Part shown: one piece after another, positions 27,448 through 42,976 of the stretch
How the letters are laid out: each line of letters begins with the position of its first letter
How positions within the stretch are numbered: the first letter of the stretch is position 1
Source: a phage
Length of the DNA: 64,000 nt
NCBI GenBank assembly: GCA_024875585.1
Contig: GCA_024875585.1_4107.1
Reading direction: 5' to 3' (one strand)
Position numbers and translations under genes: made by a program
Notes under the pieces: generated by a model
Databases searched by the model: none
Told to the model about the DNA's origin: nothing
Seen by the model: the letters and a program-made list of their open reading frames with translations, nothing else

Positions 27448-27483
27448 AAAGTACTATCGCAAAAAATGATAGTACTTTATAAT
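27448..27483 (+). promoter_or_regulatory. promoter embedded in 11-bp inverted repeat
   Basis: AAAGTACTATC(27448-58)...GATAGTACTTT(27468-78) overlapping TATAAT(27478-83); weak -35 ATCGCA. Confidence 0.5.
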
Positions 27484-27520
27484 AGTGTTTTATTCATACA
27501 CCAACGATAAGGGCAACAGC

Positions 27521-27787
27521 ATGAATATTAAGTATTTTGCGACGCGTGAACAAGCTCGGAAGGCGGCGAAAGTGGAAGGTGCAACGTTTAAAGATATGGG
27601 CATACAATCGGAACGTGGTAAACGTTGGGCCATTGTAAAGCGTAGTACAGCCAGATCATTACAGTACTGGCTATCAGCTTTAAAAAGTCCTGATAGTGTA
27701 TCGCGTCGAGTGGTAGAAATAAAGCTCGACCGTAAGGGGAATCGTGTTACCGTGTACCGTACTAAAAAGATTGCAGTGCTTGAATAA
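27521..27787 (+). CDS. hypothetical small protein, paralog of 39641..40036
   Basis: MNIKYFATREQARKAAKVEGATFKDMG...DRKGNRVTVYRTKK shared pattern; ATG 27521. Confidence 0.8.
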   Translation: MNIKYFATREQARKAAKVEGATFKDMGIQSERGKRWAIVKRSTARSLQYWLSALKSPDSVSRRVVEIKLDRKGNRVTVYRTKKIAVLE

Positions 27788-27794
27788 AAAGTAC

Positions 27795-27853
27795 TTGCAA
27801 ACTATGTTTAATGGCGTATAATGTTTTACATCGAGAGCGGGAACACTTCCCGC
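27795..27853 (+). promoter_or_regulatory. early-type promoter + leader hairpin
   Basis: TTGCAA(27795-800)-16nt-TATAAT(27817-22); gcgggaa-cac-ttcccgc 27837-53. Confidence 0.65.
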
Positions 27854-27873
27854 CTATAACCTGGAGTAATAAA

Positions 27874-28104
27874 ATGACTAATATGTATATGACTGAAGTT
27901 AAAACCGTAAAAGATACTACCACTAATAAAACTACTTACTTACAGCGGATCTGTGGTGTATGGCAACGTATCAGCAAATCAAAGTACTTTAAATTAACAT
28001 CATATGCCAATCGTTCGGATTCATTCAGTACTGAAATAAAAGGTAATAAAGTACACCAATACGGCACTTATTATTATTATAGCCTGGCCGCGATTGCAGT
28101 ATAA
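27874..28104 (+). CDS. hypothetical small protein (76 aa)
   Basis: ATG 27874 after ctggag; the track start 27811 lies in the promoter. Confidence 0.7.
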   Translation: MTNMYMTEVKTVKDTTTNKTTYLQRICGVWQRISKSKYFKLTSYANRSDSFSTEIKGNKVHQYGTYYYYSLAAIAV

Positions 28105-28134
28105 GTAGTTTACAAATCTTTACAATTGCCGGTA

Positions 28135-28225
28135 TTGACTTAAAATGTCAGTACTGGCATAATGTATCTATTGAAACGAACAATTTGGCCCACGGGGTGC
28201 GGGAGTGTATCTATAGAAAAAGTAG
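28135..28225 (+). ncRNA. candidate small-RNA unit, rightward member of a convergent pair
   Basis: TTGACT(28135-40)-17nt-CATAAT(28158-63), then gtatctattgaaacgaacaatttggCCCACGGGGTGCGGGAGTGTATCtatag; no ORF. Confidence 0.35.
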
Positions 28226-28308
28226 TTTAGTACAGTTACAATTGTGCACCCGGTGGGTTAGCTGTTGTCATGGGATATATTATACCAGTACTGGATAGTG
28301 CTGTCAAT
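28226..28308 (-). ncRNA. candidate small-RNA unit, leftward member of a convergent pair
   Basis: minus reading TTGACA(28308-03)-18nt-TATAAT(28284-79), then atatcccatgacaacagctaaCCCACCGGGTGCacaattg. Confidence 0.35.
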
Positions 28309-28352
28309 ACCTTTTTACTATTCAGTACTGAAAACTATTTGATAAAAAGTAC

Positions 28353-28380
28353 TTGCAAACTATGTTTAAAGGCGTATAAT
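28353..28380 (+). promoter_or_regulatory. early-type promoter driving structured leader
   Basis: TTGCAA(28353-58)-16nt-TATAAT(28375-80); upstream ttcagtactgaa palindrome. Confidence 0.6.
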
Positions 28381-28386
28381 GTTTTA

Positions 28387-28466
28387 CATCAGGACGGGGA
28401 ATGAAATAAGTAACTTCCCGTTAAGTAGCCCAGGAGTAAGGCATACGAAAAACTCCCCTGATAAAA
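28387..28466 (+). ncRNA. structured leader / candidate RNA motif (three-way junction), copy 1
   Basis: P1 atcagg/cctgat, P2 acgggga/ttcccgt, P3 ggagt/actcc, helices abutting; near-identical copy at 38447. Confidence 0.45.
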
Positions 28467-28470
28467 TAGT

Positions 28471-28498
28471 TTGACAATTGTTTTTAAAAGCGTATAAT
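28471..28498 (+). promoter_or_regulatory. second sigma70-type promoter after the structured leader
   Basis: TTGACA(28471-76)-16nt-TATAAT(28493-98). Confidence 0.55.
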
Positions 28499-28530
28499 AC
28501 TTACATCAACTACTGAATGAGGGTTACAAA

Positions 28531-29142
28531 ATGAAAACTATCACTACTACTACTTATGTTATGGATTTTTCTGAATTGAACGCAGAACAAAAAACGTCAG
28601 CTATCGAACTGGTTCGGGAACGTGAAAAAAACTTAAACGACGATTATTTTTCTGAAAGTGAAATTGAATACTATAAAGAAACAGTATTGCCGGAATATGG
28701 CATTAATGAAGCTGAAATACAATTCAGTGGTTTTTGGTCGCAGGGTGACGGTGCATCAATTAGTACTGACCACGTTGACGCAGTGAAGTTTTTACGTAAG
28801 GTAAGAGCATTAACTAAGTATCGCTCAATCCGTCACCTGCTGAATGAAGATGATTTGGCGATGAGTGTAAAGCGTTCTCACTCCCGCTACTCACATGAGA
28901 ACACTGTAAGCGGGTACATTGAATCGGCTTACACTGATTTAACCGCAAAACAAGAAACGTTAGTTAATGAGCTTGAGGAACTACTCACTGATACTATTCG
29001 TGAATTATCCCGCAAGTTGTACCGTGATTTAGAAAATGCATATGAGGATCAATTCACTACTGAAAACATCGTATCACTGATTGAGGGTAACGAATATCAA
29101 TTCAATGTTATTGATGGCGTAGTAGAATCAATTGCATATTAA
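28531..29142 (+). CDS. hypothetical acidic protein (203 aa)
   Basis: SD tgaggg; contains FSGFWSQGDGASISTD motif that I cannot place in a family. Confidence 0.85.
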   Translation: MKTITTTTYVMDFSELNAEQKTSAIELVREREKNLNDDYFSESEIEYYKETVLPEYGINEAEIQFSGFWSQGDGASISTDHVDAVKFLRKVRALTKYRSIRHLLNEDDLAMSVKRSHSRYSHENTVSGYIESAYTDLTAKQETLVNELEELLTDTIRELSRKLYRDLENAYEDQFTTENIVSLIEGNEYQFNVIDGVVESIAY

Positions 29143-29149
29143 AAAGTAC

Positions 29150-29209
29150 TTGCAAACTAAGTTTAAAAGCGTATAATACTTTATATCGAGGCGGGGAATG
29201 GTTCCCCGC
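29150..29209 (+). promoter_or_regulatory. early-type promoter + leader hairpin
   Basis: TTGCAA(29150-55)-16nt-TATAAT(29172-77); gcggggaa-tgg-ttccccgc 29191-209. Confidence 0.65.
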
Positions 29210-29227
29210 TCAAACGAGGATTTAAAA

Positions 29228-29467
29228 ATGGCTAGTACTAAAACTTACAACGGACACAAAAACAAAACTCATTGGAATGTAAGCCTTTGGATCAATAACG
29301 ATGAATCATTGTACCGGATTGCTCAAAATTGCATCGCTCAAAGTAAAACGAAAGATATTGCAGCGGAATTTATGTACCGCAGATTAAAAGCCAACGGTAT
29401 TACTACAACGCCGGACGGATTCAAGTATAGCACTACGGCGATCCGTGCTGCAATGGTTGGAATGTAA
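29228..29467 (+). CDS. hypothetical small protein, paralog of 27196..27435
   Basis: ATG 29228 after cgagga; NGHKNKTHWNVSLWINNDESLYR...AIRAAMVGM. Confidence 0.85.
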   Translation: MASTKTYNGHKNKTHWNVSLWINNDESLYRIAQNCIAQSKTKDIAAEFMYRRLKANGITTTPDGFKYSTTAIRAAMVGM

Positions 29468-29486
29468 TATTCAGTACTATAACAAT

Positions 29487-29506
29487 GGCGGGGAATAGTT
29501 CCCGCC
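29487..29506 (+). promoter_or_regulatory. GGGAA/TTCCC hairpin between genes
   Basis: ggcggggaa-tag-ttcccgcc followed by ttta. Confidence 0.45.
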
Positions 29507-29524
29507 TTTACTAAGGGTTATCTA

Positions 29525-29806
29525 ATGAGTAAAGTAATAAAGTACAATGTGTTAAGCAAATCATTGTCTATCAGTGAATGCACCGATGGTTTTTGGCTGT
29601 ACGATGAAACGCGTGGCATGAATTTAGCTATGCAGGAGAAAACTGCTGATGCGGCATATCTTAAAGCACTGGAATACTACCAGAAGCGTTTAACGGAAGT
29701 AGAAAACGATTATAATAACCTTAAAGCGAAAGTGGATAATTTCGTTGGTCAATTCGTTGACGATGACGAGGGGCACTACTGCGACCGTTGTGGATCTTAC
29801 AGTTAA
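29525..29806 (+). CDS. hypothetical protein (93 aa)
   Basis: SD taaggg; C-terminal HYCDRCGSYS. Confidence 0.75.
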   Translation: MSKVIKYNVLSKSLSISECTDGFWLYDETRGMNLAMQEKTADAAYLKALEYYQKRLTEVENDYNNLKAKVDNFVGQFVDDDEGHYCDRCGSYS

Positions 29807-29823
29807 GTACTAAGGATTATATA

Positions 29824-30027
29824 ATGAGTGATTTAATTGAACGTATCAAAGAGCTTGAAGAAAAAGAATTGCAGTTGATCGGTTTACAGAATAAAATCTA
29901 TCATGATTTGGGGAGTTTTATCAATGCGTGGGATAATGGCGATCCTGATGCGTTACCTGCTAACCGCCAGGCAATGATCAATGATGTGCGTGGTGTCTTT
30001 GAGTATGTTTTAAAGCAATTAAATTAA
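29824..30027 (+). CDS. hypothetical small protein (67 aa, coiled-coil-like)
   Basis: ATG 29824 after taagga. Confidence 0.7.
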   Translation: MSDLIERIKELEEKELQLIGLQNKIYHDLGSFINAWDNGDPDALPANRQAMINDVRGVFEYVLKQLN

Positions 30028-30036
30028 AAAAAGTAC

Positions 30037-30096
30037 TTGCAATTAGTTTTTAGTACTGTATAATGTTTTACATAGAGGGGAGAAATGGTTCTCCCT
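30037..30096 (+). promoter_or_regulatory. early-type promoter + leader hairpin
   Basis: AGTACTTGCAA-16nt-tAGTACTGTATAAT(30059-64); aggggagaa-atgg-ttctccct 30076-96. Confidence 0.65.
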
Positions 30097-30114
30097 GGTA
30101 ATGAGGAAAATACA

Positions 30115-30336
30115 ATGGCTAATATCACTACTCTTTCTCAACTGGAAGCACTGGTTAAATCTATGCGGGAACATGCCGACAAAATCGGCGTAAAAGATCC
30201 AGCCGTTTGCTTCTGCGACGAAATGAATGATGATACATTGGTAATAGCAGAAGTTCAGGACGTTTCTAACTATTCATCGCGTTACACTGGCGGCGTAGCA
30301 AATAAAGGTGACTTCTGTTTATACCTTACAAAATAA
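30115..30336 (+). CDS. hypothetical small protein (73 aa)
   Basis: ATG 30115 after tgaggaa. Confidence 0.75.
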   Translation: MANITTLSQLEALVKSMREHADKIGVKDPAVCFCDEMNDDTLVIAEVQDVSNYSSRYTGGVANKGDFCLYLTK

Positions 30337-30341
30337 CAACG

Positions 30342-30368
30342 AGGGGATCAATTGATCCCCTTTCTTTT
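30342..30368 (+). terminator. intrinsic terminator
   Basis: aggggatca-at-tgatcccct + tttcttttt. Confidence 0.7.
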
Positions 30369-30371
30369 TCA

Positions 30372-30469
30372 GTACTGAATAATTTAATAGACGGATCTAT
30401 GCACCCGGTGGGTTAGTGACTGTTTCGTCTTTATGTAGTAATTATGCCAGTACTGGATGCACTTGTCAA
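30372..30469 (-). ncRNA. candidate small-RNA unit (own leftward promoter + CCCAC-core transcript)
   Basis: minus reading TTGACA(30469-64)-17nt-CATAAT(30446-41), then tactacataaagacgaaacagtcactaaCCCACCGGGTGCatagatccgtcta...; runs into the palindromic terminator at 30342. Confidence 0.35.
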
Positions 30470-30502
30470 CAACTATTTTTCAAATACTTTTTATTAAAAT
30501 AC

Positions 30503-30556
30503 TTGCAATTAGTTTTTAAACGCGTATAATGTTTTGCATAGGGGGAGCGGTTCCCC
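30503..30556 (+). promoter_or_regulatory. early-type promoter + leader hairpin
   Basis: TTGCAA(30503-08)-16nt-TATAAT(30525-30); gggga-gcggt-tcccc 30541-56. Confidence 0.6.
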
Positions 30557-30577
30557 TGGTAACTAAGGAATAAGAAA

Positions 30578-30814
30578 ATGGTCGAACAAATCAAATCAAC
30601 GTCTTCGAATGTAACGGGAACGGTAGCACACTTTACTTGTGATGAATCGCGGGGCGTTCCCTATTGTGCTGTACATGTAAACACTGAGGGTAACTACTGG
30701 TTTACGGTTTACGGATCATATTCATTTGGACGGCCAGGGCATCAAAAAATTCTGGATAAAGTACAACCAACGGGTAAAAATATCACTGCCGAAATGTTTT
30801 ATAAAAACAAATAA
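30578..30814 (+). CDS. hypothetical small protein (78 aa)
   Basis: SD taagga. Confidence 0.8.
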   Translation: MVEQIKSTSSNVTGTVAHFTCDESRGVPYCAVHVNTEGNYWFTVYGSYSFGRPGHQKILDKVQPTGKNITAEMFYKNK

Positions 30815-30831
30815 AAGTACTTGATAATAGT

Positions 30832-30888
30832 TTGACTATGTATTACAGTACTGTATAATAGATACATAAGGGGCGAATAGTTTGCCCC
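30832..30888 (+). promoter_or_regulatory. sigma70-type promoter + leader hairpin
   Basis: TTGACT(30832-37)-16nt-TATAAT(30854-59); ggggcgaa-tag-tttgcccc 30870-88. Confidence 0.6.
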
Positions 30889-30908
30889 TAGTACAAAGGG
30901 GAAACATT

Positions 30909-31139
30909 ATGCCAGGCCGAATAGTTTTACTTAACGCTGGAAGTACTACACAACTCCTTAACGCCGTGTATTATGATATTGAAACGAGCGTCAATCTTAT
31001 CAGTACTGTAGTATTGTTGGACACTGGAAAGGTCGCAAATGATAAAGCGATTGCAGGTATACTAACGGATCTTAAACCAGGTTGCAGTACTCCAATAACT
31101 TTAAATGATAAAGTGTTTAATATTTTACTAACTGATTAA
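30909..31139 (+). CDS. hypothetical small protein (76 aa)
   Basis: ATG 30909 after aaagggga. Confidence 0.7.
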   Translation: MPGRIVLLNAGSTTQLLNAVYYDIETSVNLISTVVLLDTGKVANDKAIAGILTDLKPGCSTPITLNDKVFNILLTD

Positions 31140-31145
31140 GTACAT

Positions 31146-31168
31146 AGCCCACCTGGTGGGCTTTTTTG
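31146..31168 (+). terminator. intrinsic terminator
   Basis: agcccac-ctg-gtgggct + tttttt. Confidence 0.75.
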
Positions 31169-31211
31169 TTTTTGTAGTACTGCATACTTTGAAAATAGTT
31201 TTAAAAAAGTA

Positions 31212-31239
31212 GTTGACATTACCGCAAAAAGGCGTAGAA
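31212..31239 (+). promoter_or_regulatory. sigma70-type promoter
   Basis: TTGACA(31212-17)-16nt-TAGAAT(31234-39). Confidence 0.55.
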
Positions 31240-31245
31240 TGTATT

Positions 31246-31330
31246 ACATCAAGACGGGGAGCACTAAGTAGACCGCCAGTAAGTCGAACGAAAAACTGGA
31301 CACGTCGAGAAAACTTTGATACACTAACTA
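31246..31330 (+). ncRNA. structured leader, diverged third copy of the 28387/38447 motif
   Basis: keeps ctaagtagacc and acgaaaaa; P3 is ccagt/actgg instead of ggagt/actcc; P1 atcaag/ctttgat. Confidence 0.35.
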
Positions 31331-31363
31331 ACATAAACTAAACTTTAATTGAGGATTTATAAA

Positions 31364-31846
31364 ATGGCTAATGTAAAATCATTTCTGAAAGCACTGATTT
31401 CTAACGATACTGCTATTGCTGCTGAATTGCTGGCGGATCTGGATAGCGATACCATGAAAGCGGTACGCAACAATTTTAACATTGCGTACAGTGAAGCTAA
31501 AGAACTGCAAGCCAAAAAGATAGCAGAACTGGAAGAACAGAAAAAAGCCCGTGAAGAAGAATTACAAGCAACTATTGAAAGTATTCAGGCGGCGGTTGCA
31601 GGGTTGGATCTGGATGTAGTTGTAGAAATGGCACATAAAGCCCTGGCAGTTAAGTACGGTGAAGATAAGCCAGTATCTAAACCTAAAAAATGGATTCAGG
31701 AACGCGTAACGGTTGTTCTTGATAATGGCGAGGAACATTTAATTCCCGTGCGTGGTAACTGCATTGCGGTAGTTCTGGATGCTATCAAAGAAAGCGGATT
31801 GACTCGCGAGGAATGGATCGAAGCTCACCGCAAGATTGAAGCATAA
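31364..31846 (+). CDS. hypothetical protein (160 aa, helical/coiled-coil middle)
   Basis: ATG 31364 after tgagga. Confidence 0.8.
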   Translation: MANVKSFLKALISNDTAIAAELLADLDSDTMKAVRNNFNIAYSEAKELQAKKIAELEEQKKAREEELQATIESIQAAVAGLDLDVVVEMAHKALAVKYGEDKPVSKPKKWIQERVTVVLDNGEEHLIPVRGNCIAVVLDAIKESGLTREEWIEAHRKIEA

Positions 31847-31867
31847 CAATTAAAGTACTGAATCAAT

Positions 31868-31895
31868 AGCCCACTTTTTATAGTGGGCTTTTTTG
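31868..31895 (+). terminator. intrinsic terminator
   Basis: agcccact-ttttat-agtgggct + tttttt. Confidence 0.75.
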
Positions 31896-32049
31896 TGCTT
31901 ATCGTTTACCATGCCACCAGCACCGCCTAGAATCGATTCTAACGCATTAAACTGATTATCTGATGAATCGCCCTAGCTGGTGGCGTTAATGCCGTTAGAA
32001 CGCGATTGAGGATGTTTAAAGTATTTTTGCAAAAAGTAATAAAAAGTAC

Positions 32050-32077
32050 TTGCACGATTAAGAGATTAGAGTATAAT
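32050..32077 (+). promoter_or_regulatory. early-type promoter
   Basis: AGTACTTGCAC-16nt-TATAAT(32072-77). Confidence 0.6.
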
Positions 32078-32122
32078 TAATTACATCAAGACAAGACACC
32101 TTAACTAACTGAGGATATAAAG

Positions 32123-32275
32123 ATGAATACTTATGAACTGGATTGTTTTACTTTACAAGTAATGTCAGTATGCAGTAAAAAAGATTGGTCATCAAAGGAA
32201 TTTAAAGCAGTTATTGCGTGTGCAAAACACGGCAAGACTATCAATGAAACGGCATCAATCATTGATAAACTTTAA
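32123..32275 (+). CDS. hypothetical small protein (50 aa; below cutoff), paralog of 36122..36265
   Basis: ATG 32123 after tgagga; ...HGKTINETASIIDKL resembles ...DGKSVKDTVKIIRKM. Confidence 0.55.
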   Translation: MNTYELDCFTLQVMSVCSKKDWSSKEFKAVIACAKHGKTINETASIIDKL

Positions 32276-32283
32276 AAAATAGT

Positions 32284-32312
32284 TTGACAATAGTTTTAAG
32301 TACTGCGATAAT
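32284..32312 (+). promoter_or_regulatory. sigma70-type promoter
   Basis: TTGACA(32284-89)-17nt-GATAAT(32307-12). Confidence 0.55.
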
Positions 32313-32345
32313 ACATACATCAACTACTGAATAGGAATAAAAACA

Positions 32346-32573
32346 ATGGCTATCGTAATCACTCGCGTAACTGGTACTACTGGCACTGCTTCAACTGTTG
32401 CTGTAATTACTAATAAGAAAGGTGCAGAATTACATTTTGCAATGGATAAATGGGCCGTTAATGAGTTTGGTCAGTGGGCAAGTGTAGAATACATTGAAAC
32501 CTATCAAGTGCCATCGATTAGCTTAACTGATTTAGGTGTAGAACGTATCCTTTGTCTGGATGAATTAAATTAA
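32346..32573 (+). CDS. hypothetical small protein (75 aa)
   Basis: SD tagga; MAIVITR.. N-terminus like 32886 and 35841. Confidence 0.75.
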   Translation: MAIVITRVTGTTGTASTVAVITNKKGAELHFAMDKWAVNEFGQWASVEYIETYQVPSISLTDLGVERILCLDELN

Positions 32574-32581
32574 AAAAGTAC

Positions 32582-32642
32582 TTGCAAAGTAAATCGAATA
32601 AAGTATAATACATTACATCAAGGGGAGAAAATGGTTCTCCCC
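32582..32642 (+). promoter_or_regulatory. early-type promoter + leader hairpin
   Basis: TTGCAA(32582-87)-16nt-TATAAT(32604-09); ggggagaa-aatgg-ttctcccc 32622-42. Confidence 0.65.
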
Positions 32643-32660
32643 ACTAAGAGGAAACTAAAA

Positions 32661-32804
32661 ATGAAAACTTGTCAATGTGGTAAAAAATCTATTACTGGTT
32701 TGAAACGGGGCGTTTCACTTTGCCAGTACCATTATAATTTACAAGTATGGGGTAAAGAATGGGCCGACCAGGTTGAAGCATCAAAGAAAGCAAAAAGTAA
32801 GTAA
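32661..32804 (+). CDS. hypothetical Cys-rich small protein (47 aa; below cutoff)
   Basis: ATG 32661 after aagagga; MKTCQCGKK...SLCQYHYN. Confidence 0.55.
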   Translation: MKTCQCGKKSITGLKRGVSLCQYHYNLQVWGKEWADQVEASKKAKSK

Positions 32805-32805
32805 A

Positions 32806-32885
32806 ATTATTATCACAGTACTATTGACATAGATTGATAGTACTGGCATAATAGATTTTATCAAGACAACTAAGAGGAAATTAAA
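32806..32885 (+). repeat. about 80-bp promoter cassette, copy 1 of 4
   Basis: tatcaCAGTACTATTGACAtagattgATAGTACTGgCATAATagattttatcaagacaactaagaggaaattaaa; TTGACA 32824-29, CATAAT 32847-52; 9-bp inverted arms 32816-24 / 32837-45. Confidence 0.7.
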
Positions 32886-33098: not shown

Positions 33099-33100
33099 AA

Positions 33101-36826: not shown

Positions 36827-36833
36827 AAAGTAA

Positions 36834-36861: not shown

Positions 36862-36890
36862 GTTTTATATCTTAACTGAGGATAGAAATC

Positions 36891-37247: not shown

Positions 37248-37261
37248 TACTAAAAAAGTAA

Positions 37262-37318: not shown

Positions 37319-37336
37319 TACTAAGAGGAAATGAAA

Positions 37337-37525: not shown

Positions 37526-37532
37526 AAAGTAC

Positions 37533-37622
37533 TTGCAATTAGTTTTTAGTACTGTATAATAGTTTACATGAAAGGCAACGGGAAGTTTAAAAACTTCCCT
37601 AAAGGGGGAAATGATTCTCCCC
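37533..37622 (+). promoter_or_regulatory. early-type promoter + tandem leader hairpins
   Basis: TTGCAA(37533-38)-16nt-TATAAT(37555-60); hairpin A 37580-99; hairpin B 37604-22. Confidence 0.65.
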
Positions 37623-37640
37623 ACTAAGAGGAAAGAAAAA

Positions 37641-37853
37641 ATGCAAGGTCAACTAATCGTTCGTAAATGGTCTGATACTAATGAAAAACCGTGGGATGTA
37701 CAATACATCGGACCGGATGGGGTATCACGTTATCAGCCAGGCGTAACGCATAGTACTGAGCAATATGCCGCCGCTCATCGTGAACGCCTGTTAGAATCTA
37801 TGCAACAGGGTTTAGGTGAAAAATTCATTCAAGATCATTGGCTGAAAGATTAA
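37641..37853 (+). CDS. hypothetical small protein (70 aa)
   Basis: ATG 37641 after aagagga. Confidence 0.75.
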   Translation: MQGQLIVRKWSDTNEKPWDVQYIGPDGVSRYQPGVTHSTEQYAAAHRERLLESMQQGLGEKFIQDHWLKD

Positions 37854-37860
37854 AAAGTAC

Positions 37861-37920
37861 TTGTGTAGTATAGAAAATAAAGTATAATGTTTAATACAGG
37901 AAGGGGAATAGTTCCCCTCC
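37861..37920 (+). promoter_or_regulatory. early-type promoter + leader hairpin
   Basis: TTGTGT(37861-66)-16nt-TATAAT(37883-88); ggaaggggaa-tag-ttcccctcc 37899-920. Confidence 0.6.
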
Positions 37921-37939
37921 TAACAAAAAGGAAAGTAAC

Positions 37940-38113
37940 ATGATTCATGTAGAATTGTCAGTACTGAGAGATTTGTTTTATCGGATGGGTACTACTGGCG
38001 AATATCCGAAGGGTGATACTGCAAAACTTTTTGTATCTCTCGACTTATGGCAACGCGAACAATTAGTAATGTCGTGGCGTAAAGGTAAAGCAGATCGCGA
38101 GGTGAAAGCATGA
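37940..38113 (+). CDS. hypothetical small protein (57 aa; below cutoff)
   Basis: ATG 37940 after aaagga; MIHVELSVLRDLFYRMG... Confidence 0.55.
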   Translation: MIHVELSVLRDLFYRMGTTGEYPKGDTAKLFVSLDLWQREQLVMSWRKGKADREVKA

Positions 38114-38259
38114 AAGAATTTTTATTCGAAGTAGTTTTTATTGGTGTAAGTAGTCACCAATTGATTCGCTCAAGTGGTTATAATGTTTGCCAGGCATGGA
38201 ATAACATTAAACAAATGTACCCGAACGCTATCACATATCGCAACCCAAAACAAGTTTAA
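38110..38259 (+). CDS. hypothetical small protein (49 aa; below cutoff)
   Basis: ATGA overlap with 37940..38113; MKEFLFEVVFIGVSSHQ... Confidence 0.5.
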   Translation: MKEFLFEVVFIGVSSHQLIRSSGYNVCQAWNNIKQMYPNAITYRNPKQV

Positions 38260-38270
38260 AAATAATTAAA

Positions 38271-38307
38271 AAAAGGATTGACTTCGGTCAGTCCTTTTTG
38301 CTATTAT
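38271..38307 (+). promoter_or_regulatory. bifunctional terminator hairpin / promoter
   Basis: aaaaggattgac-ttcg-gtcagtcctttt; TTGACT(38278-83)-18nt-TATTAT(38302-07). Confidence 0.6.
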
Positions 38308-38313
38308 ATATTC

Positions 38314-38370
38314 ATTGAGAGATAGCTCACTGACCCATAGGGTGCGGAAGTGTATCTATTATATGCTGGT
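38314..38370 (+). ncRNA. candidate short transcript with CCCAC-type core
   Basis: attcattgagagatagctcactgaCCCATAGGGTGCGGAAGTGTATCtattatatgc; core 38334-45. Confidence 0.35.
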
Positions 38371-38412
38371 GGGTGTATTATCTAGTACTGAAAACTATTT
38401 GATAAAAAGTAC

Positions 38413-38440
38413 TTGCATTGTACTTAGAATCAAGTATAAT
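38413..38440 (+). promoter_or_regulatory. early-type promoter driving structured leader
   Basis: TTGCAT(38413-18)-16nt-TATAAT(38435-40). Confidence 0.6.
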
Positions 38441-38446
38441 GTTTTA

Positions 38447-38526
38447 CATCAGGACGGGGAACGAAATAAGTAAATCCCTGTTAAGTAGCCCAGGAGTAAG
38501 GCATACGAAAAACTCCCCTGATAAAA
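38447..38526 (+). ncRNA. structured leader / candidate RNA motif (three-way junction), copy 2
   Basis: same P1/P3 as copy 1; P2 acgggga/tccctgt re-pairs with a shifted G-U. Confidence 0.45.
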
Positions 38527-38530
38527 TAGT

Positions 38531-38559
38531 TTGACAATAATTTTAAGTACTGATAAAAT
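38531..38559 (+). promoter_or_regulatory. second promoter after structured leader
   Basis: TTGACA(38531-36)-17nt-TAAAAT(38554-59). Confidence 0.45.
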
Positions 38560-38591
38560 AATCACATCAACTACTGATAAGGAAACATAAA

Positions 38592-38867
38592 ATGCGGGTT
38601 CTTCTGACAGCTAACGAAATCGAGCAAGTACTTACTACTAACCTGGAACAATGGAAACGTGAAGCAGATATCCAGGCGGTTCAATTGTTAAATGAGAAGT
38701 TAACGCCGGATGATTTAAGTAAGATTGTAGATCCTCAATTCTACGAAGATATTCACGACACCGCGTTAAGCGTCGAGGATGTACTAGATAAGCACTACAT
38801 TGATACTAATTTACAGGGTTACGGTCGTAAAAATTTTATTACTATTCACGACATTTACAATAATTAA
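38592..38867 (+). CDS. hypothetical protein (91 aa)
   Basis: SD taagga. Confidence 0.8.
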   Translation: MRVLLTANEIEQVLTTNLEQWKREADIQAVQLLNEKLTPDDLSKIVDPQFYEDIHDTALSVEDVLDKHYIDTNLQGYGRKNFITIHDIYNN

Positions 38868-38870
38868 GTA

Positions 38871-38931
38871 TTGACAAAGTATCTTAGTACTGTATAATAG
38901 TTTACATCAAGTGAGGGGAATGGTTCCCCTC
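38871..38931 (+). promoter_or_regulatory. sigma70-type promoter + leader hairpin (cassette copy 1 of 3)
   Basis: TTGACA(38871-76)-16nt-TATAAT(38893-98); gaggggaa-tgg-ttcccctc 38913-31. Confidence 0.65.
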
Positions 38932-38952
38932 CTAACAAAGAGAGAAATAAAA

Positions 38953-39135
38953 ATGGCTAAGTGCACTATCTGTAAGAAAGAAATCGTATTAGTTCCAAGT
39001 GCCCGTGAGCGTGCCGCTCGGTTCGGTGGCAAAGCGTCAGACTATACAAAAATGTTTACTACTCATGCAAATTGCCAGGTAGCAAAACGTTCACAAGAAA
39101 GCGTAGAATTAATGCGTAAACTTTCCAAAAAATAA
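38953..39135 (+). CDS. hypothetical basic Cys-containing small protein (60 aa)
   Basis: ATG 38953 after agagag; MAKCTICKKEIVL...HANCQVAKR. Confidence 0.7.
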   Translation: MAKCTICKKEIVLVPSARERAARFGGKASDYTKMFTTHANCQVAKRSQESVELMRKLSKK

Positions 39136-39138
39136 GTA

Positions 39139-39200
39139 TTGACAAAGTATCTTAGTACTGTATAATAGTTTACATCAAGTGAGGGGAAACGGTTCCCCTC
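39139..39200 (+). promoter_or_regulatory. sigma70-type promoter + leader hairpin (cassette copy 2 of 3)
   Basis: TTGACA(39139-44)-16nt-TATAAT(39161-66); gaggggaa-acgg-ttcccctc 39181-200. Confidence 0.65.
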
Positions 39201-39221
39201 CTAACAAAGAGAGAAATAAAA

Positions 39222-39545
39222 ATGACTATGATCCTTGCCCAGAAAGTAGAACTGAAAATTGTAACTTCCTTTGACATTAAAGTTAATCGCTGGACTGATC
39301 GGAACGGTAATACTTACCACTCTTGCTACGTGTCTGCATTGATTGGTGATCGTTGGGAAGACTTGGGACACGAAACCTTTACATACGGTTATGGTACGCA
39401 AGGCGAATACACTGGTTTGGAGATCATTAAAGAAACCGTTATAGGTTTCAACCCGAAAGAAAAAGTTATTCACCGCATCGAAAAAGAGATTAACAAAGAA
39501 ATAACAGTTCGCTACTACGATGTAAAACGTAAGAAAGACATGTAA
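39222..39545 (+). CDS. hypothetical protein (107 aa), paralog of 33181..33525
   Basis: see 33181; shared tail DVKRKKD(L/M). Confidence 0.85.
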   Translation: MTMILAQKVELKIVTSFDIKVNRWTDRNGNTYHSCYVSALIGDRWEDLGHETFTYGYGTQGEYTGLEIIKETVIGFNPKEKVIHRIEKEINKEITVRYYDVKRKKDM

Positions 39546-39557
39546 TAGAATCCATTT

Positions 39558-39596
39558 AAAGTACTATTTGACATTACACAGATAGTACTTTATAAT
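39558..39596 (+). promoter_or_regulatory. promoter embedded in 10-bp inverted repeat
   Basis: AAAGTACTAT(39558-67)...ATAGTACTTT(39582-91); TTGACA 39568-73 -17nt- TATAAT 39591-96. Confidence 0.6.
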
Positions 39597-39640
39597 AGAC
39601 TCTAACTTGTAGTACTAACTTAACTAATAGGATGTATACC

Positions 39641-40036
39641 ATGATTACTAAATTCTACGCTACCCGTGAAGCTGCCCGTATTGTTGCACGCGAGGAAGGA
39701 GCGGCATTTAAAGACATGGGCAAAGATGCACCGAAAGGCCAACGCTGGAGCGTACAGTTCAAAGAAATCTCTGATATTGTGAATTCACCTGAACCAGTAC
39801 TGACAGCAGCAGAACAGAAGAAAGCTGATGAACTGGCGGCAATTCTTAACGCTCAAGATGAATTCGTCGAGGGTGCTGATATCCAGGTTGTAGTAAATTC
39901 GAATGCATGGACTCACGCGGATCATCTGGCTAACCTGAAGCGTCCAAGCGTACTGATTCGCAACCAGAAAGAGATCCGTCATGACCGTAAGGGTAATCGT
40001 GTAACAGTATACAGTAAACGCCGCCAGGTTATCTAA
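39641..40036 (+). CDS. hypothetical protein (131 aa), paralog of 27521..27787
   Basis: MITKFYATREAARIVAREEGAAFKDMG...HDRKGNRVTVYSKRR. Confidence 0.8.
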   Translation: MITKFYATREAARIVAREEGAAFKDMGKDAPKGQRWSVQFKEISDIVNSPEPVLTAAEQKKADELAAILNAQDEFVEGADIQVVVNSNAWTHADHLANLKRPSVLIRNQKEIRHDRKGNRVTVYSKRRQVI

Positions 40037-40058
40037 TAACTTGCAGTTCTAACAACAC

Positions 40059-40083
40059 GGCGGGATCTGTTCCCGCCTTTTTT
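40059..40083 (+). terminator. intrinsic terminator
   Basis: ggcggga-tctgt-tcccgcc + tttttt. Confidence 0.7.
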
Positions 40084-40098
40084 ACAGGATAAACTAAA

Positions 40099-40353
40099 AT
40101 GATTAAGGTAAAACTATCTAAAGATAATATCTTGCGGGTACACTATAAAGCCCCTCAGAGAATCATCACAAAGGCCGTACAGCTTGCGAATGAGTTTATT
40201 AATGGTAATCTATTACCTAGGAAGTTAAGCAACGGAAAACTGCGTGTAATCGATGTAGACACTAACAACAGAATAGTAATAGAGAATACCGGAAAGATAA
40301 ACCTATATGAACACCAACAATATAATAAGAAAATAAAACTAATTAGTCGTTGA
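40099..40353 (+). CDS. hypothetical protein (84 aa)
   Basis: SD cagga. Confidence 0.7.
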   Translation: MIKVKLSKDNILRVHYKAPQRIITKAVQLANEFINGNLLPRKLSNGKLRVIDVDTNNRIVIENTGKINLYEHQQYNKKIKLISR

Positions 40354-40378
40354 CAGTACTCAAATGTTTTAGTACTAT
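40350..40378 (+). promoter_or_regulatory. sigma70-type promoter
   Basis: TTGACAGTACTcaaatgttttAGTACTAT; -10 TACTAT 40373-78; duplicated at 40627. Confidence 0.5.
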
Positions 40379-40407
40379 ATATCTATACCAACACGGAGAG
40401 AAACAAA

Positions 40408-40626
40408 ATGAAATTATCTAAAATCGAAAAGAAAACTATTGACGTAGCTATCCAACATGGTTACACATTTCGTAATGATTTACATTTTACCAATTTTCAA
40501 CAAGGGTATCGTACTATTAAAAAACTAATTGACAAAGGTTTATTAGTTAAAGTAGACAACGGCAACGGCGTTGAATATCAACCAACACAGGACGCATTTA
40601 ATTTTAAGAAATATAATATTATCTAA
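40408..40626 (+). CDS. possible winged-helix DNA-binding protein (72 aa)
   Basis: ...YRTIKKLIDKGLLVKVDNGNG... resembles a wHTH recognition helix plus wing; weak. Confidence 0.7.
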   Translation: MKLSKIEKKTIDVAIQHGYTFRNDLHFTNFQQGYRTIKKLIDKGLLVKVDNGNGVEYQPTQDAFNFKKYNII

Positions 40627-40655
40627 TTGACAGTACTCAAATATTTTAGTACTAT
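40627..40655 (+). promoter_or_regulatory. sigma70-type promoter (duplicate of 40350)
   Basis: TTGACA(40627-32)-17nt-TACTAT(40650-55). Confidence 0.5.
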
Positions 40656-40682
40656 ATCTATACCAACACAGGAAAAAACAAA

Positions 40683-41267
40683 ATGCGTAATTATACTAAA
40701 TTCATCCGTACACTGTCAGAAATGGAAACCAACAAAGAGATCTTGACAGCTTGTCGGTTAGCTGGTCTGGAGATCATCGGTGCGGGGTCTTCCCGTATTG
40801 TATTCGCTTTAAATGATCGGTTAGTGATTAAGGTCGCGAATTGTGATGCAGGTGTAGAACAAAATGAAACAGAATGTAAAGTATGGAATTTTTTAGATTA
40901 TGACCGCCCTCAGTTGAAACAGTTCTTTGCTAAAGTACATATGCATTTAAGCGATCCTGATAATATGTTTATTGTTATGGATCGGTTGAGTACTGCAAGT
41001 AAAGGCAGTGTAAAGCACGTTAATGCGTGCAACGAATTAAAGTACAATATTAAACGTAATGCCATTGAACGCCAACACCGCTTTGCTGATGCACTACAAC
41101 ACGTAGATGATACATTATCAACACTAACGATTAGAGATATCAGAAAACAGAATATCGGCCAGGATCGAAATGGACTGATTAAAGTACTTGATTATGGTTT
41201 AACCCGCAATATCTGGAATCAGTACTATAAAAAGCGTGATGTAGCAGCAAGTAAGGTAACACGATAA
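40683..41267 (+). CDS. atypical minimal protein-kinase-fold protein
   Basis: GAGSSRIVFALNDRLVIKVAN (G-loop + VIK Lys), IRDIRKQNIG (D-x-x-x-x-N), KVLDYGL (DFG-like). Confidence 0.65.
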   Translation: MRNYTKFIRTLSEMETNKEILTACRLAGLEIIGAGSSRIVFALNDRLVIKVANCDAGVEQNETECKVWNFLDYDRPQLKQFFAKVHMHLSDPDNMFIVMDRLSTASKGSVKHVNACNELKYNIKRNAIERQHRFADALQHVDDTLSTLTIRDIRKQNIGQDRNGLIKVLDYGLTRNIWNQYYKKRDVAASKVTR

Positions 41268-41280
41268 AAAAGATTAAAAA

Positions 41281-41314
41281 AGGGATTGACTCCGGTCAGT
41301 CCCTTTGCTATTAT
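41281..41314 (+). promoter_or_regulatory. bifunctional terminator hairpin / promoter
   Basis: agggattgac-tccg-gtcagtccct; TTGACT(41286-91)-17nt-TATTAT(41309-14). Confidence 0.6.
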
Positions 41315-41320
41315 ATATTC

Positions 41321-41375
41321 ATTGAGAGATAACTCACTGACCCATAGGGTGCGGGAGTGTATCTATTATATAAGT
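41321..41375 (+). ncRNA. candidate short transcript with CCCAC-type core
   Basis: attcattgagagataactcactgaCCCATAGGGTGCGGGAGTGTATCtattatataag; core 41341-52. Confidence 0.35.
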
Positions 41376-41407
41376 ATTGAGTACTGAAAACTATTTTTAA
41401 AAAGTAC

Positions 41408-41468
41408 TTGCAATGTACTTAGAATCAAGTATAATGTTTTATATCGAGAGGGGGAAATGGTTCTCCCC
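41408..41468 (+). promoter_or_regulatory. early-type promoter + leader hairpin
   Basis: TTGCAA(41408-13)-16nt-TATAAT(41430-35); gggggaaa-tgg-ttctcccc 41450-68. Confidence 0.6.
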
Positions 41469-41489
41469 AATACAATAAGGAATAAAATC

Positions 41490-41711
41490 ATGACTACAAT
41501 GACTTGCATTTACGCTTCCAATCTTCTGAATGATGCGGCCTTTAATGTTGATTCAGAATATCAATGTTATCGGGATGAAAATAAAAAAGTTTTTGTAGTT
41601 GATAATAATGGTTTCCATATTGAATTGCAATCCGGCTTCACTGGCGTTGATGGTAAATCAGTATGGGGCGTACAGGATGATAAAGGTACATATCATTTTA
41701 AACGTAATTAA
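41490..41711 (+). CDS. hypothetical small protein (73 aa)
   Basis: ATG 41490 after taagga. Confidence 0.75.
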   Translation: MTTMTCIYASNLLNDAAFNVDSEYQCYRDENKKVFVVDNNGFHIELQSGFTGVDGKSVWGVQDDKGTYHFKRN

Positions 41712-41714
41712 GTA

Positions 41715-41804
41715 TTGACAAAGTATCTTAGTACTGTATAATAGTTTACATCAAGGGCAACGGGAAGTTTTTAAAACTTCCCTATAGGGAGAATAGATCT
41801 CCCC
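41715..41804 (+). promoter_or_regulatory. sigma70-type promoter + tandem leader hairpins (cassette copy 3 of 3)
   Basis: TTGACA(41715-20)-16nt-TATAAT(41737-42); hairpin A 41762-82; hairpin B 41787-804. Confidence 0.65.
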
Positions 41805-41826
41805 GATACTAAAAGGAAACAAAAAT

Positions 41827-42099
41827 ATGTCTAGCTACTCCGCTACTATGATCATTAAAGATATGAACGGTAATCCTACTGCTGCTGGTGGATCATTTGG
41901 AAACATTAACTTAGATGGTCGGTTAACCATGCAATCAGCCATCAATGCAGCGAAAGAAGTTTTTAAGAATGAATGCACTGTAAGTAAGCTGGATTATATG
42001 GGATTCGCTATCGAGAAAACTAATCGTTTTGTGAACTACAAAAATCCACTGATGATTGATACCAACCTGAAAGCTAACGAAGTGGAATACTTATTATGA
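41827..42099 (+). CDS. hypothetical protein (90 aa)
   Basis: SD aaagga. Confidence 0.8.
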   Translation: MSSYSATMIIKDMNGNPTAAGGSFGNINLDGRLTMQSAINAAKEVFKNECTVSKLDYMGFAIEKTNRFVNYKNPLMIDTNLKANEVEYLL

Positions 42100-42287
42100 C
42101 AGTTGAAGAAGTTAAAAAAGTACTGGCAGTTCTACGCTATCATAATCATTGCAAGGTGAAGAATGATCCTGATTATCTTGATTCATCCCTTGAGGAAGAC
42201 ACATTAAACGCAATAAGCTATATGCAAACATTATTAAAACGTATGACCGAAAAGAATAGACCGGACTATATCGGAAATAAAATTTAA
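42096..42287 (+). CDS. hypothetical small protein (63 aa)
   Basis: ATGA overlap with upstream gene. Confidence 0.7.
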   Translation: MTVEEVKKVLAVLRYHNHCKVKNDPDYLDSSLEEDTLNAISYMQTLLKRMTEKNRPDYIGNKI

Positions 42288-42294
42288 AAAGTAC

Positions 42295-42355
42295 TTGCAT
42301 TGTAGTTAGATTAACGTATAATGTTTTATATCGAGAGGGGAAATGGTTTCCCCTC
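42295..42355 (+). promoter_or_regulatory. early-type promoter + leader hairpin
   Basis: TTGCAT(42295-300)-16nt-TATAAT(42317-22); gaggggaaa-tgg-tttcccctc 42335-55. Confidence 0.65.
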
Positions 42356-42373
42356 AAGTCCAGGAGATACACA

Positions 42374-42637
42374 ATGAACACTATCGAAATCACTATCAAT
42401 GCTCACGTATACGACAACGTAGTACTGCAAACTACTATGACCGCTAATGATACCAGAACTTTGCGGAATACTGTTATAAGTGCCGTATGTGCTGCAATTG
42501 GTGATGTATCCCTGGAAAATGCAGAACATATCAACAACGGTTTCACTATGTGCAAACGTGATAACGCAAAACATATCATCGTAGAAGGTTACGGCGGTGT
42601 AGAATATAATCTTTATATGAAAAAAGTACTTGCATAG
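42374..42637 (+). CDS. hypothetical protein (87 aa)
   Basis: SD caggag; 3' end overlaps next promoter. Confidence 0.8.
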   Translation: MNTIEITINAHVYDNVVLQTTMTANDTRTLRNTVISAVCAAIGDVSLENAEHINNGFTMCKRDNAKHIIVEGYGGVEYNLYMKKVLA

Positions 42638-42686
42638 TAACTAAAACAAAGTATAATGTTTTGCATAGGGGGAGATATCCTCCCCC
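42629..42686 (+). promoter_or_regulatory. early-type promoter + leader hairpin
   Basis: TTGCAT(42629-34)-17nt-TATAAT(42652-57); gggggag-atatc-ctccccc 42668-86. Confidence 0.6.
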
Positions 42687-42704
42687 ACTAAAAGGAGTAC
42701 TAAA

Positions 42705-42929
42705 ATGGCTAACTTTGATGAACTGATGCGGGAAGTAGCTACCCTGGCAGAAGAGAAGAAATCATTTGATTCTATCTATAACACCTCTTACCGTGATTCA
42801 GTACTGGCATGTAACCAGGATCAAAAAGATGAACTAATCGCCACCTATCATGAAGCGTGGAAGTATTACCGCCAATGGGAGAAAGAAGAAAGTGAGTCTA
42901 CCATTGACGGCCTCAATAATCTAATCTAA
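42705..42929 (+). CDS. hypothetical acidic small protein (74 aa)
   Basis: SD aaaggag. Confidence 0.8.
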   Translation: MANFDELMREVATLAEEKKSFDSIYNTSYRDSVLACNQDQKDELIATYHEAWKYYRQWEKEESESTIDGLNNLI

Positions 42930-42934
42930 AGTTT

Positions 42935-42976
42935 TATTTCAGTACTATTGACATAGATTGATAGTACTGATATGAT
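42935..42976 (+). repeat. promoter cassette, partial copy 4 of 4
   Basis: tttCAGTACTATTGACAtagattgATAGTACTGatatgat; TTGACA 42948-53 -17nt- TATGAT 42971-76. Confidence 0.55.

Follow-up and report, generated by a model that had tools for sequence, protein, structure and literature searches.

Early promoters and their AGTACT slots

The 64,000-nucleotide stretch of phage DNA analyzed here (contig GCA_024875585.1_4107.1; hereafter, the window) is RaK2/121Q-like, being nearest by megablast to the Asteriusvirus jumbo coliphages 121Q, PBECO4, G17, and E9.1 (~91% identity), and contains in its early region a set of promoters that lie within inverted repeats (IRs) whose arms carry the palindromic hexamer AGTACT. 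A sequence-only reading of the window had taken these repeats for the operators of a separate promoter subclass and had named a small protein encoded nearby as a candidate partner. The part of the window at 30–44 kb aligns a few kb in from an end of several deposited relative genomes, and in Klebsiella phage fENko-Kae01 the homologous region of small open reading frames (ORFs) lies inside a 19.7-kb direct terminal repeat. Gene calls were heuristic, promoters were predicted as matches to the -35 and -10 consensus, and genome-wide counts were made in OR844650, a complete relative of 350 kb that is ~90% identical.

Plus-strand sites at 25–44.6 kb with at least 10 of 12 matches to TTGACA/TATAAT-type hexamers 16–18 bp apart were called as early promoters, which yielded 41. 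As expected of sigma-70-type promoters, they formed a dense near-consensus array at 25–45 kb, in one orientation and upstream of ORFs bearing a ribosome-binding site (RBS); twelve sites matched the consensus at 12/12 positions, eleven of them on the plus strand. In phage CBB, RpoD-like promoters are reported to carry UP-like elements and to be concentrated in the early region (PMC5259590), and for PA5oct, source of the only related transcriptome that we found, TTGAC/TATAATA promoters are reported (PMC7318152).

In 31 of the 41 promoters AGTACT occupied one or two of a small set of fixed positions, or slots, defined by where the word starts relative to the start of the -10 hexamer: slot A, just 5′ of the -35 hexamer (-27 to -31); slot A′, ~10 bp upstream of slot A (-38); slot B, overlapping the 3′ end of the -35 hexamer (-17/-18); and slot C, abutting the -10 hexamer (-7/-8). 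Seven promoters had only slot A filled, 11 only slot C, and five only slot B, and eight had both A and C filled; the remaining ten were mostly TTGACT/TATTAT promoters embedded in terminator hairpins. The same positions recurred among 235 unique strong promoters from RaK2-like loci, with 89 AGTACT starts at -7/-8, 16 at -17/-18, 49 at -27 to -30, and nine at -38/-39, and with only three in the middle of the spacer (-16 to -11). Loci found by scanning for the double-site pattern were selected for A+C pairs; the unselected window and fENko-Kae01, in which the promoter layout is alike, gave the same slots. The array and the seven repeats within it are as follows.

25000..44600, plus strand: early-region array of 41 sigma-70-like promoters, 31 with AGTACT in a slot
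32816..32845, plus strand: IR promoter, cassette copy 1, CAGTACTAT-N12-ATAGTACTG; AGTACT at 32817 (slot A) and 32839 (slot C), -35 TTGACA at 32824-32829, -10 CATAAT at 32847-32852 with TG upstream
33111..33140, plus strand: IR promoter, cassette copy 2, in a ~95-nt cassette that includes the 5′ untranslated region (5′UTR), RBS, and ATG-GCT
35773..35802, plus strand: IR promoter, cassette copy 3
42940..42969, plus strand: IR promoter, copy 4, with the 30-nt IR and a few flanking bases in common; -10 TATGAT at 42971-42976
36031..36069, plus strand: IR promoter with 13-nt perfect arms CAGTACTATCAAA/TTTGATAGTACTG; cores 31 bp apart, in slots A′ and C
27447..27479, plus strand: IR with 12-nt perfect arms TAAAGTACTATC/GATAGTACTTTA and a 9-nt loop; TATAAT abuts the right arm, no recognizable -35
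39557..39592, plus strand: IR promoter with 14-nt arms, one mismatch; TTGACA at 39568-39573, -10 at 39591-39596

All seven proposed repeats were present in the window where they had been placed. Each was intergenic and 5′ of a small plus-strand ORF, and the pattern CAGTACTAT-N12-ATAGTACTG occurred exactly four times (32816, 33111, 35773, and 42940), compared to 0.00 expected from 100 shuffles. Six of the repeats enclose TTGACA, and the one at 27448 has no recognizable -35. The right arm adjoined a TATAAT-like hexamer in all seven cases, ending 0–2 nt ahead of it or 1–2 nt inside it. The description of these elements needed several corrections. Of the four supposed cassette copies, all had the 30-nt IR, but the long ~95-nt cassette (UP-like tract, promoter, 5′UTR, RBS, and ATG-GCT) was present in only three, with which the 42940 copy had a common stretch of only ~36 nt. 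The list of repeats was also incomplete, as the same architecture, or its two cores alone, was found at additional sites.

25354..25405, plus strand: IR promoter, TACAGTACTGAATAAT/ATGATTCAGTACTGTA around TTGACA at 25382-25387
28286..28330, minus strand: IR promoter, CAGTACTGAATAGT...TTGACA...ACTATCCAGTACTGG-TATAAT, converging on the plus-strand promoter at 28135-28163
40355..40376, plus strand: 22-bp spacer palindrome AGTACTcAAATGTTTtAGTACT in the promoter of the predicted winged-helix gene
40632..40653, plus strand: the spacer palindrome again, here 5′ of the following gene (40683-41267)
30032..30057, plus strand: core-only double-site promoter; cores 20 bp apart at 30032 (slot A) and 30052 (slot C), complementary in AGTACT alone
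34400-34425 (cores 34400/34420) and 37528-37553 (cores 37528/37548), plus strand: paralogous core-only double sites

Because the arms contain the window's most over-represented hexamer, which is itself a palindrome, any two copies of AGTACT automatically form a 6-bp IR. Slots A and C were filled together about as often as independent placement would have it, with an odds ratio of 1.6 (p = 0.53) in the window and 2.1 (p = 0.15) when fENko-Kae01 was included. With slots in 31 of 41 early promoters and double filling near that of independent placement, the idea of a separate promoter subclass does not stand: the repeats are promoters in which two slots are filled.

Other features accompanied these promoters. 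The cassette promoters (32803-32858, 33096-33155, and 35754-35821) form a long imperfect palindrome with 22–28-nt arms that are 79–83% complementary, in which the upstream ATTATCAC is an inverted copy of the -10; their minus strand reads AGTACTGTGATAAT, which is extended -10-like and could drive antisense transcription into the upstream gene. At 28135-28330 two near-consensus promoters converge from ~120 bp apart (plus-strand -10 at 28158, minus-strand -10 at 28279-28284) and enclose inverted GCACCC/GGGTGC boxes, an arrangement in which overlapping sense and antisense short transcripts are possible. Terminator-like hairpins with a -35 (TTGACT) in the ascending arm, followed by TATTAT, lie at 34863-34898, 38270-38307, 41279-41314, and 43570-43605; these fused elements lack AGTACT, and similar ones lie at 1370, 5882, 9278, and 10562. 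Between 26651 and 44200 many promoters are followed by a conserved initial transcribed sequence, GTTTTACATCGAGAG, and then by a GGGGAA-N4-6-TTCCCC stem-loop in the 5′UTR, a combination found at slot-A, slot-B, and slot-C-only promoters and absent from the IR cassette class.

A genome-wide word under purifying selection

Among the hexamers of the window AGTACT stood out as by far the most over-represented (225 copies, compared to 21.9 expected from composition), and CAGTACTG occurred 46 times, compared to 0.7 expected. OR844650 had 918 copies of AGTACT where 120 were expected, an enrichment of ~8-fold that amounts to ~1 per 380 bp, and 204 copies of CAGTACTG where 3.5 were expected; each of its 10-kb bins contained at least 12 copies of AGTACT, and those of the early region 61–67. 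Within the ORFs of the window AGTACT occurred 111 times and in all three reading frames (43/26/42), whereas synonymous-codon shuffling left 41 ± 5.5 copies and shuffling of codon order 19.6 ± 4.4. Its density was nonetheless 3–4 times higher in early intergenic DNA (10.0/kb) than in genes (2.8/kb). Placement within genes was roughly uniform, with no clear position bias, and a search of coding DNA for the 10-bp periodicity of a wrapping model found no close-pair structure outside the promoter region. Coding and non-coding sites had similar flanks, with the near-symmetric consensus TTTC-AGTACT-GAAA and with G disfavored at position -1 (9%).

Palindromes were otherwise avoided. OR844650 had no GCGC, where 296 copies were expected, and lacked at least 20 palindromic hexamers, including GGATCC, CTGCAG, GAGCTC, CCATGG, GGTACC, and CGTACG; CAGCTG, AGCGCT, AGGCCT, and CGATCG were all absent from the window. 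The exceptions were AGTACT and, mildly, GTGCAC. In a genome so purged of palindromes, AGTACT is therefore one that has been positively kept.

Comparison with relatives, in which ortholog pairs and promoter clusters are not fully independent, gave the same picture site by site. At coding sites AGTACT positions mismatched at 3.0% with 121Q and 0% with G17, compared to backgrounds of 10% and 6.9%, and the word was fully kept at 29 of 33 and 29 of 29 sites, respectively, compared to 60–71% for control hexamers. At intergenic sites the mismatch was 4.1% (121Q) and 1.9% (G17), compared to 12.1% and 9.8%, with 51 of 57 and 63 of 69 sites fully kept, compared to 61–68% of control hexamers. Within orthologous promoters AGTACT mismatched at 7.8%, compared to 15.7% at other non-hexamer positions, 6.4% in the -10, and 2.3% in the -35. 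The word is under purifying selection both in genes and in intergenic DNA, in each of which it is kept two to three times better than background.

The enrichment extended to more distant relatives. Across 50 kb of structural and metabolic genes of RaK2 the ratio of observed to expected copies (O/E) was 7, and at early-region loci of putative RaK2, CBB, and GAP32 contigs and of uncultivated relatives it was 17–22; AGTACT was enriched in all of the RaK2-like early-region loci that we sampled. When the whole collection was scanned for the double-site promoter pattern, nearly all loci with multiple hits came from contigs of 345–378 kb. Four IMG/VR contigs (24–35 kb) and one 278-kb contig were also 8- to 16-fold enriched in AGTACT; the word may reach beyond the recognized clade, or these contigs may be fragments of RaK2-like phages.

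Paired sites, their arms, and the proposed partner protein

The core-to-core distance varied among 149 unique double-site promoters, being 20 bp in 60, 21 in 38, 22 in 23, 23–24 in ten, and 31–33 in nine, and the 20- and 21-bp classes, which together make up about two thirds, had no inner complementarity beyond the core. Longer arms were labile. The arms at 36031 are perfect solely in this genome, the left one reading ATTAAA in three relatives, and the second core of the 40355 palindrome reads AGTATT in two relatives. In the G17 ortholog of the 35773 repeat a 9-nt insertion makes the arms longer and shifts the left core upstream by one helical turn. With slots A and C not significantly associated, spacing variable, and long arms labile, we rejected selection on the pair as such; what is conserved is a single palindrome with a preference for TTC...GAA flanks, not a two-arm operator.

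The loop of the 27448 repeat (27459-27467) is inverted in G17 (1580-1588 of the compared stretch), ATCGCAAAAAATGAT in one genome corresponding to ATCATTTTTTGCGAT in the other between identical flanks, and OR844650 has a different, shorter loop. A loop that inverts between fixed arms is a hallmark of recombination or template switching between inverted repeats, and at 27448 such an inversion or template switch, mediated by the IR, has occurred at a promoter. The segment ATCAAAGCTATTGACAA lies at different loci in this genome and G17, which indicates exchange between cassettes. The lability of the arms fits mutation as well as, or better than, it fits selection. The T4-type mobile cassettes known as promoter-early stem-loops (PeSL), too, are near-identical early promoter cassettes located between the small ORFs of a plastic early region, and the repetition and exchange that mark mobile cassettes are seen here in the three ~95-nt copies and in ATCAAAGCTATTGACAA. 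The stem-loop of PeSL follows the promoter, whereas the self-complementary arms in this phage lie around the -35 and have a genome-wide word as their core. The IR-class cassettes have no 5′UTR hairpin; other promoter classes in the region have one (GGGGAA..TTCCCC).

The arrangement resembles that of classical operators. Those of lambda cI/Cro, P22 Arc/Mnt, and TetR/tetO likewise place a palindrome between or beside the -35 and -10 of a strong promoter, much as the arms here bracket the -35 and abut the -10, and two sites on the same face could likewise allow cooperative binding. In three other respects the operator-like layout fails. Half-site spacing is not fixed, taking values of 19–24 and 31–33 bp and differing between relatives at orthologous sites. 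The sites are not confined to regulated promoters, with 111 of the 225 copies in the window inside ORFs and 918 copies in OR844650. And no cognate gene co-occurs with them, at least not that of the proposed partner. The unit is a 6-bp core in ~900 mostly genic copies with variable spacing and no adjacent cognate repressor gene, and a word so spread through the genome, coding DNA included, does not fit a local operator.

The partner that had been suggested is encoded just downstream of one of the spacer palindromes.

40408..40626, plus strand: 72-aa protein with a predicted winged-helix fold, proposed partner of the repeats; fold supported, pairing not

A structural model of this product (pLDDT 90.4) superposed on AspA, MarR, and MecI with TM scores of 0.78–0.85 and a best E-value of 2.6e-3, which agrees with the suggested winged-helix fold; no Pfam or PHROG family matched, and its homologues were all close ones. 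Among 50,697 phage records, tblastn found the gene in 33, and 25 of these belonged to Escherichia phages. The Klebsiella homologues among the matches listed were in four phages of 137–147 kb, at least one of them a Mydovirus, and none of the matches listed (14) was a RaK2-, CBB-, or GAP32-like record. A Klebsiella Mydovirus with a 56%-identical homologue had no AGTACT in the surrounding 12 kb, where 3.8 were expected. The pairing thus fares worse than the fold. The distribution of the gene is narrow and differs from that of AGTACT, which is enriched at all sampled RaK2-like loci, and the second core in the gene's own promoter is not conserved, so we rejected this protein as the AGTACT reader. 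Judged by the model and the distribution, it is plausibly a small DNA-binding protein, yet a weak candidate as the clade-wide AGTACT factor.

The remainder of the window holds several further features. The early region (24000-46400) has ~60 small ORFs of unknown function in all and encodes a DksA/TraR-type zinc-finger protein (36569-36826), a protein with a ParE-like toxin domain, a GNAT acetyltransferase, and a kinase-like protein; the families recognized in the window were DksA/TraR zinc finger, ParE-like toxin, GNAT, kinase-like, RCC1-like repeats, GmrSD_N, and DenV. On the minus strand at 14940-21167 lie five tandem paralogous genes of 375–450 aa, and four window ORFs match RCC1-like repeat families; the tandem genes are followed by terminator hairpins with AGTACT in the stem (GCCAGTA-TCAAG-TACTGGC; four copies, at 16143, 17565, 18750, and 20002). 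A 1.3-kb non-coding stretch at 25300-26600 contains degenerate GGCTAAACGG / CTAGATGG repeats and may be a genome terminus or terminal-repeat boundary, because it adjoins the start points of several deposited relatives. Five plus-strand copies of a conserved non-coding element, GGGTGCGGGAGTGTATC, lie at 26272, 28195, 34931, 38340, and 41347, each preceded by (C)CCAYRG, and those at 34931, 38340, and 41347 are downstream of terminator-embedded promoters. This element, possibly a small RNA and perhaps transcribed from the minus strand, had no Rfam or tRNA match and no covariation-supported fold; a search of the whole window for tRNAs and known RNA families found none.

A candidate factor-binding site and its alternatives

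Tentatively, and with somewhat less than even confidence, we favor AGTACT as a candidate site for a DNA-binding or DNA-modifying factor that modulates early promoters. The IRs would be pairs of one short palindromic word, (C)AGTACT(G), that is selected genome-wide in RaK2/121Q-like jumbo phages and placed at fixed positions in the sigma-70-type early promoters used by the host RNA polymerase. Each copy would be recognized as a duplex by a sequence-specific, probably dimeric factor that is common to the clade and encoded outside the window. Palindromy, symmetric flanks, enrichment regardless of frame, purifying selection, and conservation across several hosts argue for recognition by a symmetric double-stranded-DNA–binding protein, and because slow-evolving cores hold fixed positions overlapping RNA polymerase contacts, it is reasonable to think of a protein as the reader. 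The slots would lie at about -41 to -36 (A), -30 to -25 (B), and -20 to -14 (C). A factor bound at A would cover the 5′ side of the -35 and the contacts of sigma region 4 and the alpha-CTD, one at B the 3′ side of the -35, and one at C the spacer and extended -10, and through this overlap with polymerase contacts it would modulate early transcription.

The most likely effect would be the shut-off of early transcription once the factor accumulates, a negative role being the most economical one because the promoters are already near-consensus; the repeat at 27448 lacks a -35 and would allow for activation as well. Where two slots lying two or three helical turns apart are both filled, the factor could bind cooperatively. 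The long arms would be secondary, arising through cassette duplication and exchange and through template switching seeded by two self-complementary cores. Of the dimeric repressor or activator geometry read from the sequence alone, what we retain are the near-consensus promoters, the fixed polymerase-overlapping positions, and the slower evolution of the cores; the two-arm local operator we do not.

Several points weigh against a factor of this kind acting at single sites. Pfam and PHROG scans of the 137 window ORFs found no helix-turn-helix family and no other candidate protein, and neither mapped transcription starts nor expression timing for these phages turned up in the papers searched. 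That slots A, B, and C lie ~10 bp apart is weak evidence for binding on the same face, because this spacing follows automatically from a word that abuts the -35 and -10 hexamers; slot A′ abuts no hexamer. Enrichment in genes is unneeded for promoter control, and the primary role of the word may be non-transcriptional. The arms extended by at least 3 nt in total in 9 of 30 clusters, compared to 2.8 ± 1.5 under the null (P = 0.0002), and had inner complementarity of at least 2 in eight clusters, compared to 3.3 with shuffled pairing (P = 0.006), several of these clusters possibly sharing ancestry; this excess hints at pair-level constraint or at a mutational process outside the single-site model. 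The IRs would also fold into stable hairpins of -14 to -17.6 kcal/mol in read-through transcripts (z -3.3 to -6.5 compared to shuffles).

The closest parallels among known systems lie with other dispersed words. L5/Bxb1 stoperators and P1 C1 operators are many copies of a short word scattered at promoters and within and between genes, and AGTACT, too, has dispersed copies under purifying selection in both settings. Those sites are asymmetric, with the stoperators biased in orientation, and belong in tens of copies to the immunity systems of temperate phages, whereas AGTACT is a perfect palindrome with near-symmetric flanks, present in hundreds of copies in a virulent-type jumbo phage. HIP1 (GCGATCGC) of cyanobacteria is described as a palindrome over-represented genome-wide, coding DNA included, and maintained by selection, with no established function (PMC5861425). 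AGTACT shares this genome-wide, coding-inclusive enrichment and differs from HIP1 in being viral rather than cellular. To our knowledge HIP1 has not been described as a promoter component at a fixed position. AGTACT resembles the stoperators and P1 C1 sites, HIP1, and the GATC/Dam/SeqA system considered below, and fully matches none of them.

A broader form of the favored reading, which we regard as speculative and fairly unlikely, is that AGTACT is a clade-specific 'self word', for which a reader (or a methyltransferase plus a reader) would use ~900 sites to organize and distinguish phage DNA in a genome largely purged of other palindromes and would also, through copies in the fixed slots, switch off the host-polymerase early promoters of the terminal-repeat region in the course of infection.

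Still less probable is an epigenetic mark, the target of a phage methyltransferase whose methylation state (none, hemi-, or full methylation following replication), read by the polymerase or by a SeqA-like reader, would time the early promoters, and whose high density would serve strand or self discrimination. The GATC sites of E. coli are likewise a dense genome-wide palindrome that is clustered in some regulatory regions; their reader SeqA prefers phased pairs one to three helical turns apart, and promoter activity can depend on their methylation. AGTACT is a short palindrome of comparable density (~1 per 380 bp, in genes and between them, with no bin in OR844650 below a dozen), and its promoter pairs, at 20–24 and 31–33 bp, are about two and three helical turns apart. 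Modification would explain why AGTACT survives where restriction-type palindromes such as GCGC have been purged. For RaK2, two putative methyltransferases are reported, along with DNA that resists methylation-sensitive enzymes (PMC3622015). However, AGTACT as a hexamer requires ~8-fold enrichment to reach a density like that of GATC, methylation per se needs no enrichment of sites, no methyltransferase specificity is known for the clade, and neither a methyltransferase nor a reader is linked to AGTACT. The deamination neighbor AATACT is not depleted (O/E 1.1–1.4), which argues weakly against 5-methylcytosine with repair bias and led us to reject a VSP-like repair bias as the origin of the word.

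We consider it similarly improbable that AGTACT is intrinsic promoter architecture, read by the host RNA polymerase or through DNA shape with no separate factor, in which slot A would be part of a proximal UP element and slot C the TG and spacer context of an extended -10. The slot-A sequence AAAAAAGTA fits the proximal UP-subsite consensus, which we take to be AAAAAARNR, AGTACTGG-CATAAT is a canonical TGn extended -10, and the slots abut the hexamers and leave the mid-spacer nearly empty. UP-like elements at the RpoD-like promoters of CBB are consistent with this idea (PMC5259590). It leaves unexplained the enrichment and conservation in genes in three frames, as well as slots B and A′, and ten of the 41 early promoters do without the word. 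We also know of no classic strong coliphage or E. coli promoter that contains AGTACT.

The same low probability goes to a by-product, in which the word has a genome-wide non-transcriptional role (self-marking, compaction, packaging, or repair), promoters merely tolerate it, and IRs arise from two self-complementary words by duplication and template switching. The genome-wide distribution, the lack of association between slots A and C, the labile arms, the inverted loop, and the segments exchanged between cassettes all fit. Early intergenic DNA, however, is denser in AGTACT than are genes, the promoter cores are under constraint similar to that of the -10 hexamer, and sites are nearly absent from the mid-spacer. 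Mid-spacer positions of promoters usually tolerate sequence change.

Least probable of all is that the IRs act as hairpins, either as a stem-loop in read-through RNA (a 3′-end stabilizer, a processing site, or a leaky terminator separating small genes) or in single-stranded DNA: folding well beyond that of shuffles, conserved arms with variable loops that tolerate even inversion, and co-varying flanks (AT/AT versus CT/AG, GGA/TCC, and GGAAC/GTTCC; outer C..G versus A..T) favor it, but most double-site promoters have no complementarity past the core, close relatives do not keep the long arms, no U-tract directly follows the stem, and the single sites, which are the majority, go unexplained. In a direct test for intrinsic terminators the stems of the seven IRs were AT-rich with the nearest T-run ~10 nt downstream, and a terminator scan called none of the seven. 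Two identities were rejected outright. For the SlmA nucleoid-occlusion site, whose consensus we take to be GTGAGTACTCAC, the sequence GAGTACTC occurred 0 times in the window and four times in OR844650, compared to 3.5 expected, and G is disfavored at position -1; for a LexA box, inspection found only the half-site likeness TACTGTATA in AGTACTGTATAAT, with no ACAG partner.

Together, ~900 kept copies, fixed slots in three quarters of the early promoters, sharing by phages of Escherichia and Klebsiella and by the sampled CBB- and GAP32-sized contigs, and a genome otherwise purged of palindromes point to one sequence-specific factor with both a global and a regulatory role. Full-text searches that covered journals in part, together with the RaK2, CBB, and PA5oct papers and the CBB supplements, brought up no mention of AGTACT or CAGTACTG for these phages, and published analyses that bear on early-gene timing in RaK2/121Q jumbo phages mention only RpoD-like promoters with UP-like elements. 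Were the word to belong to a new phage regulator or to a new epigenetic timing device, either would be of general interest and relevant to the engineering of these phages, which are being explored for therapy.

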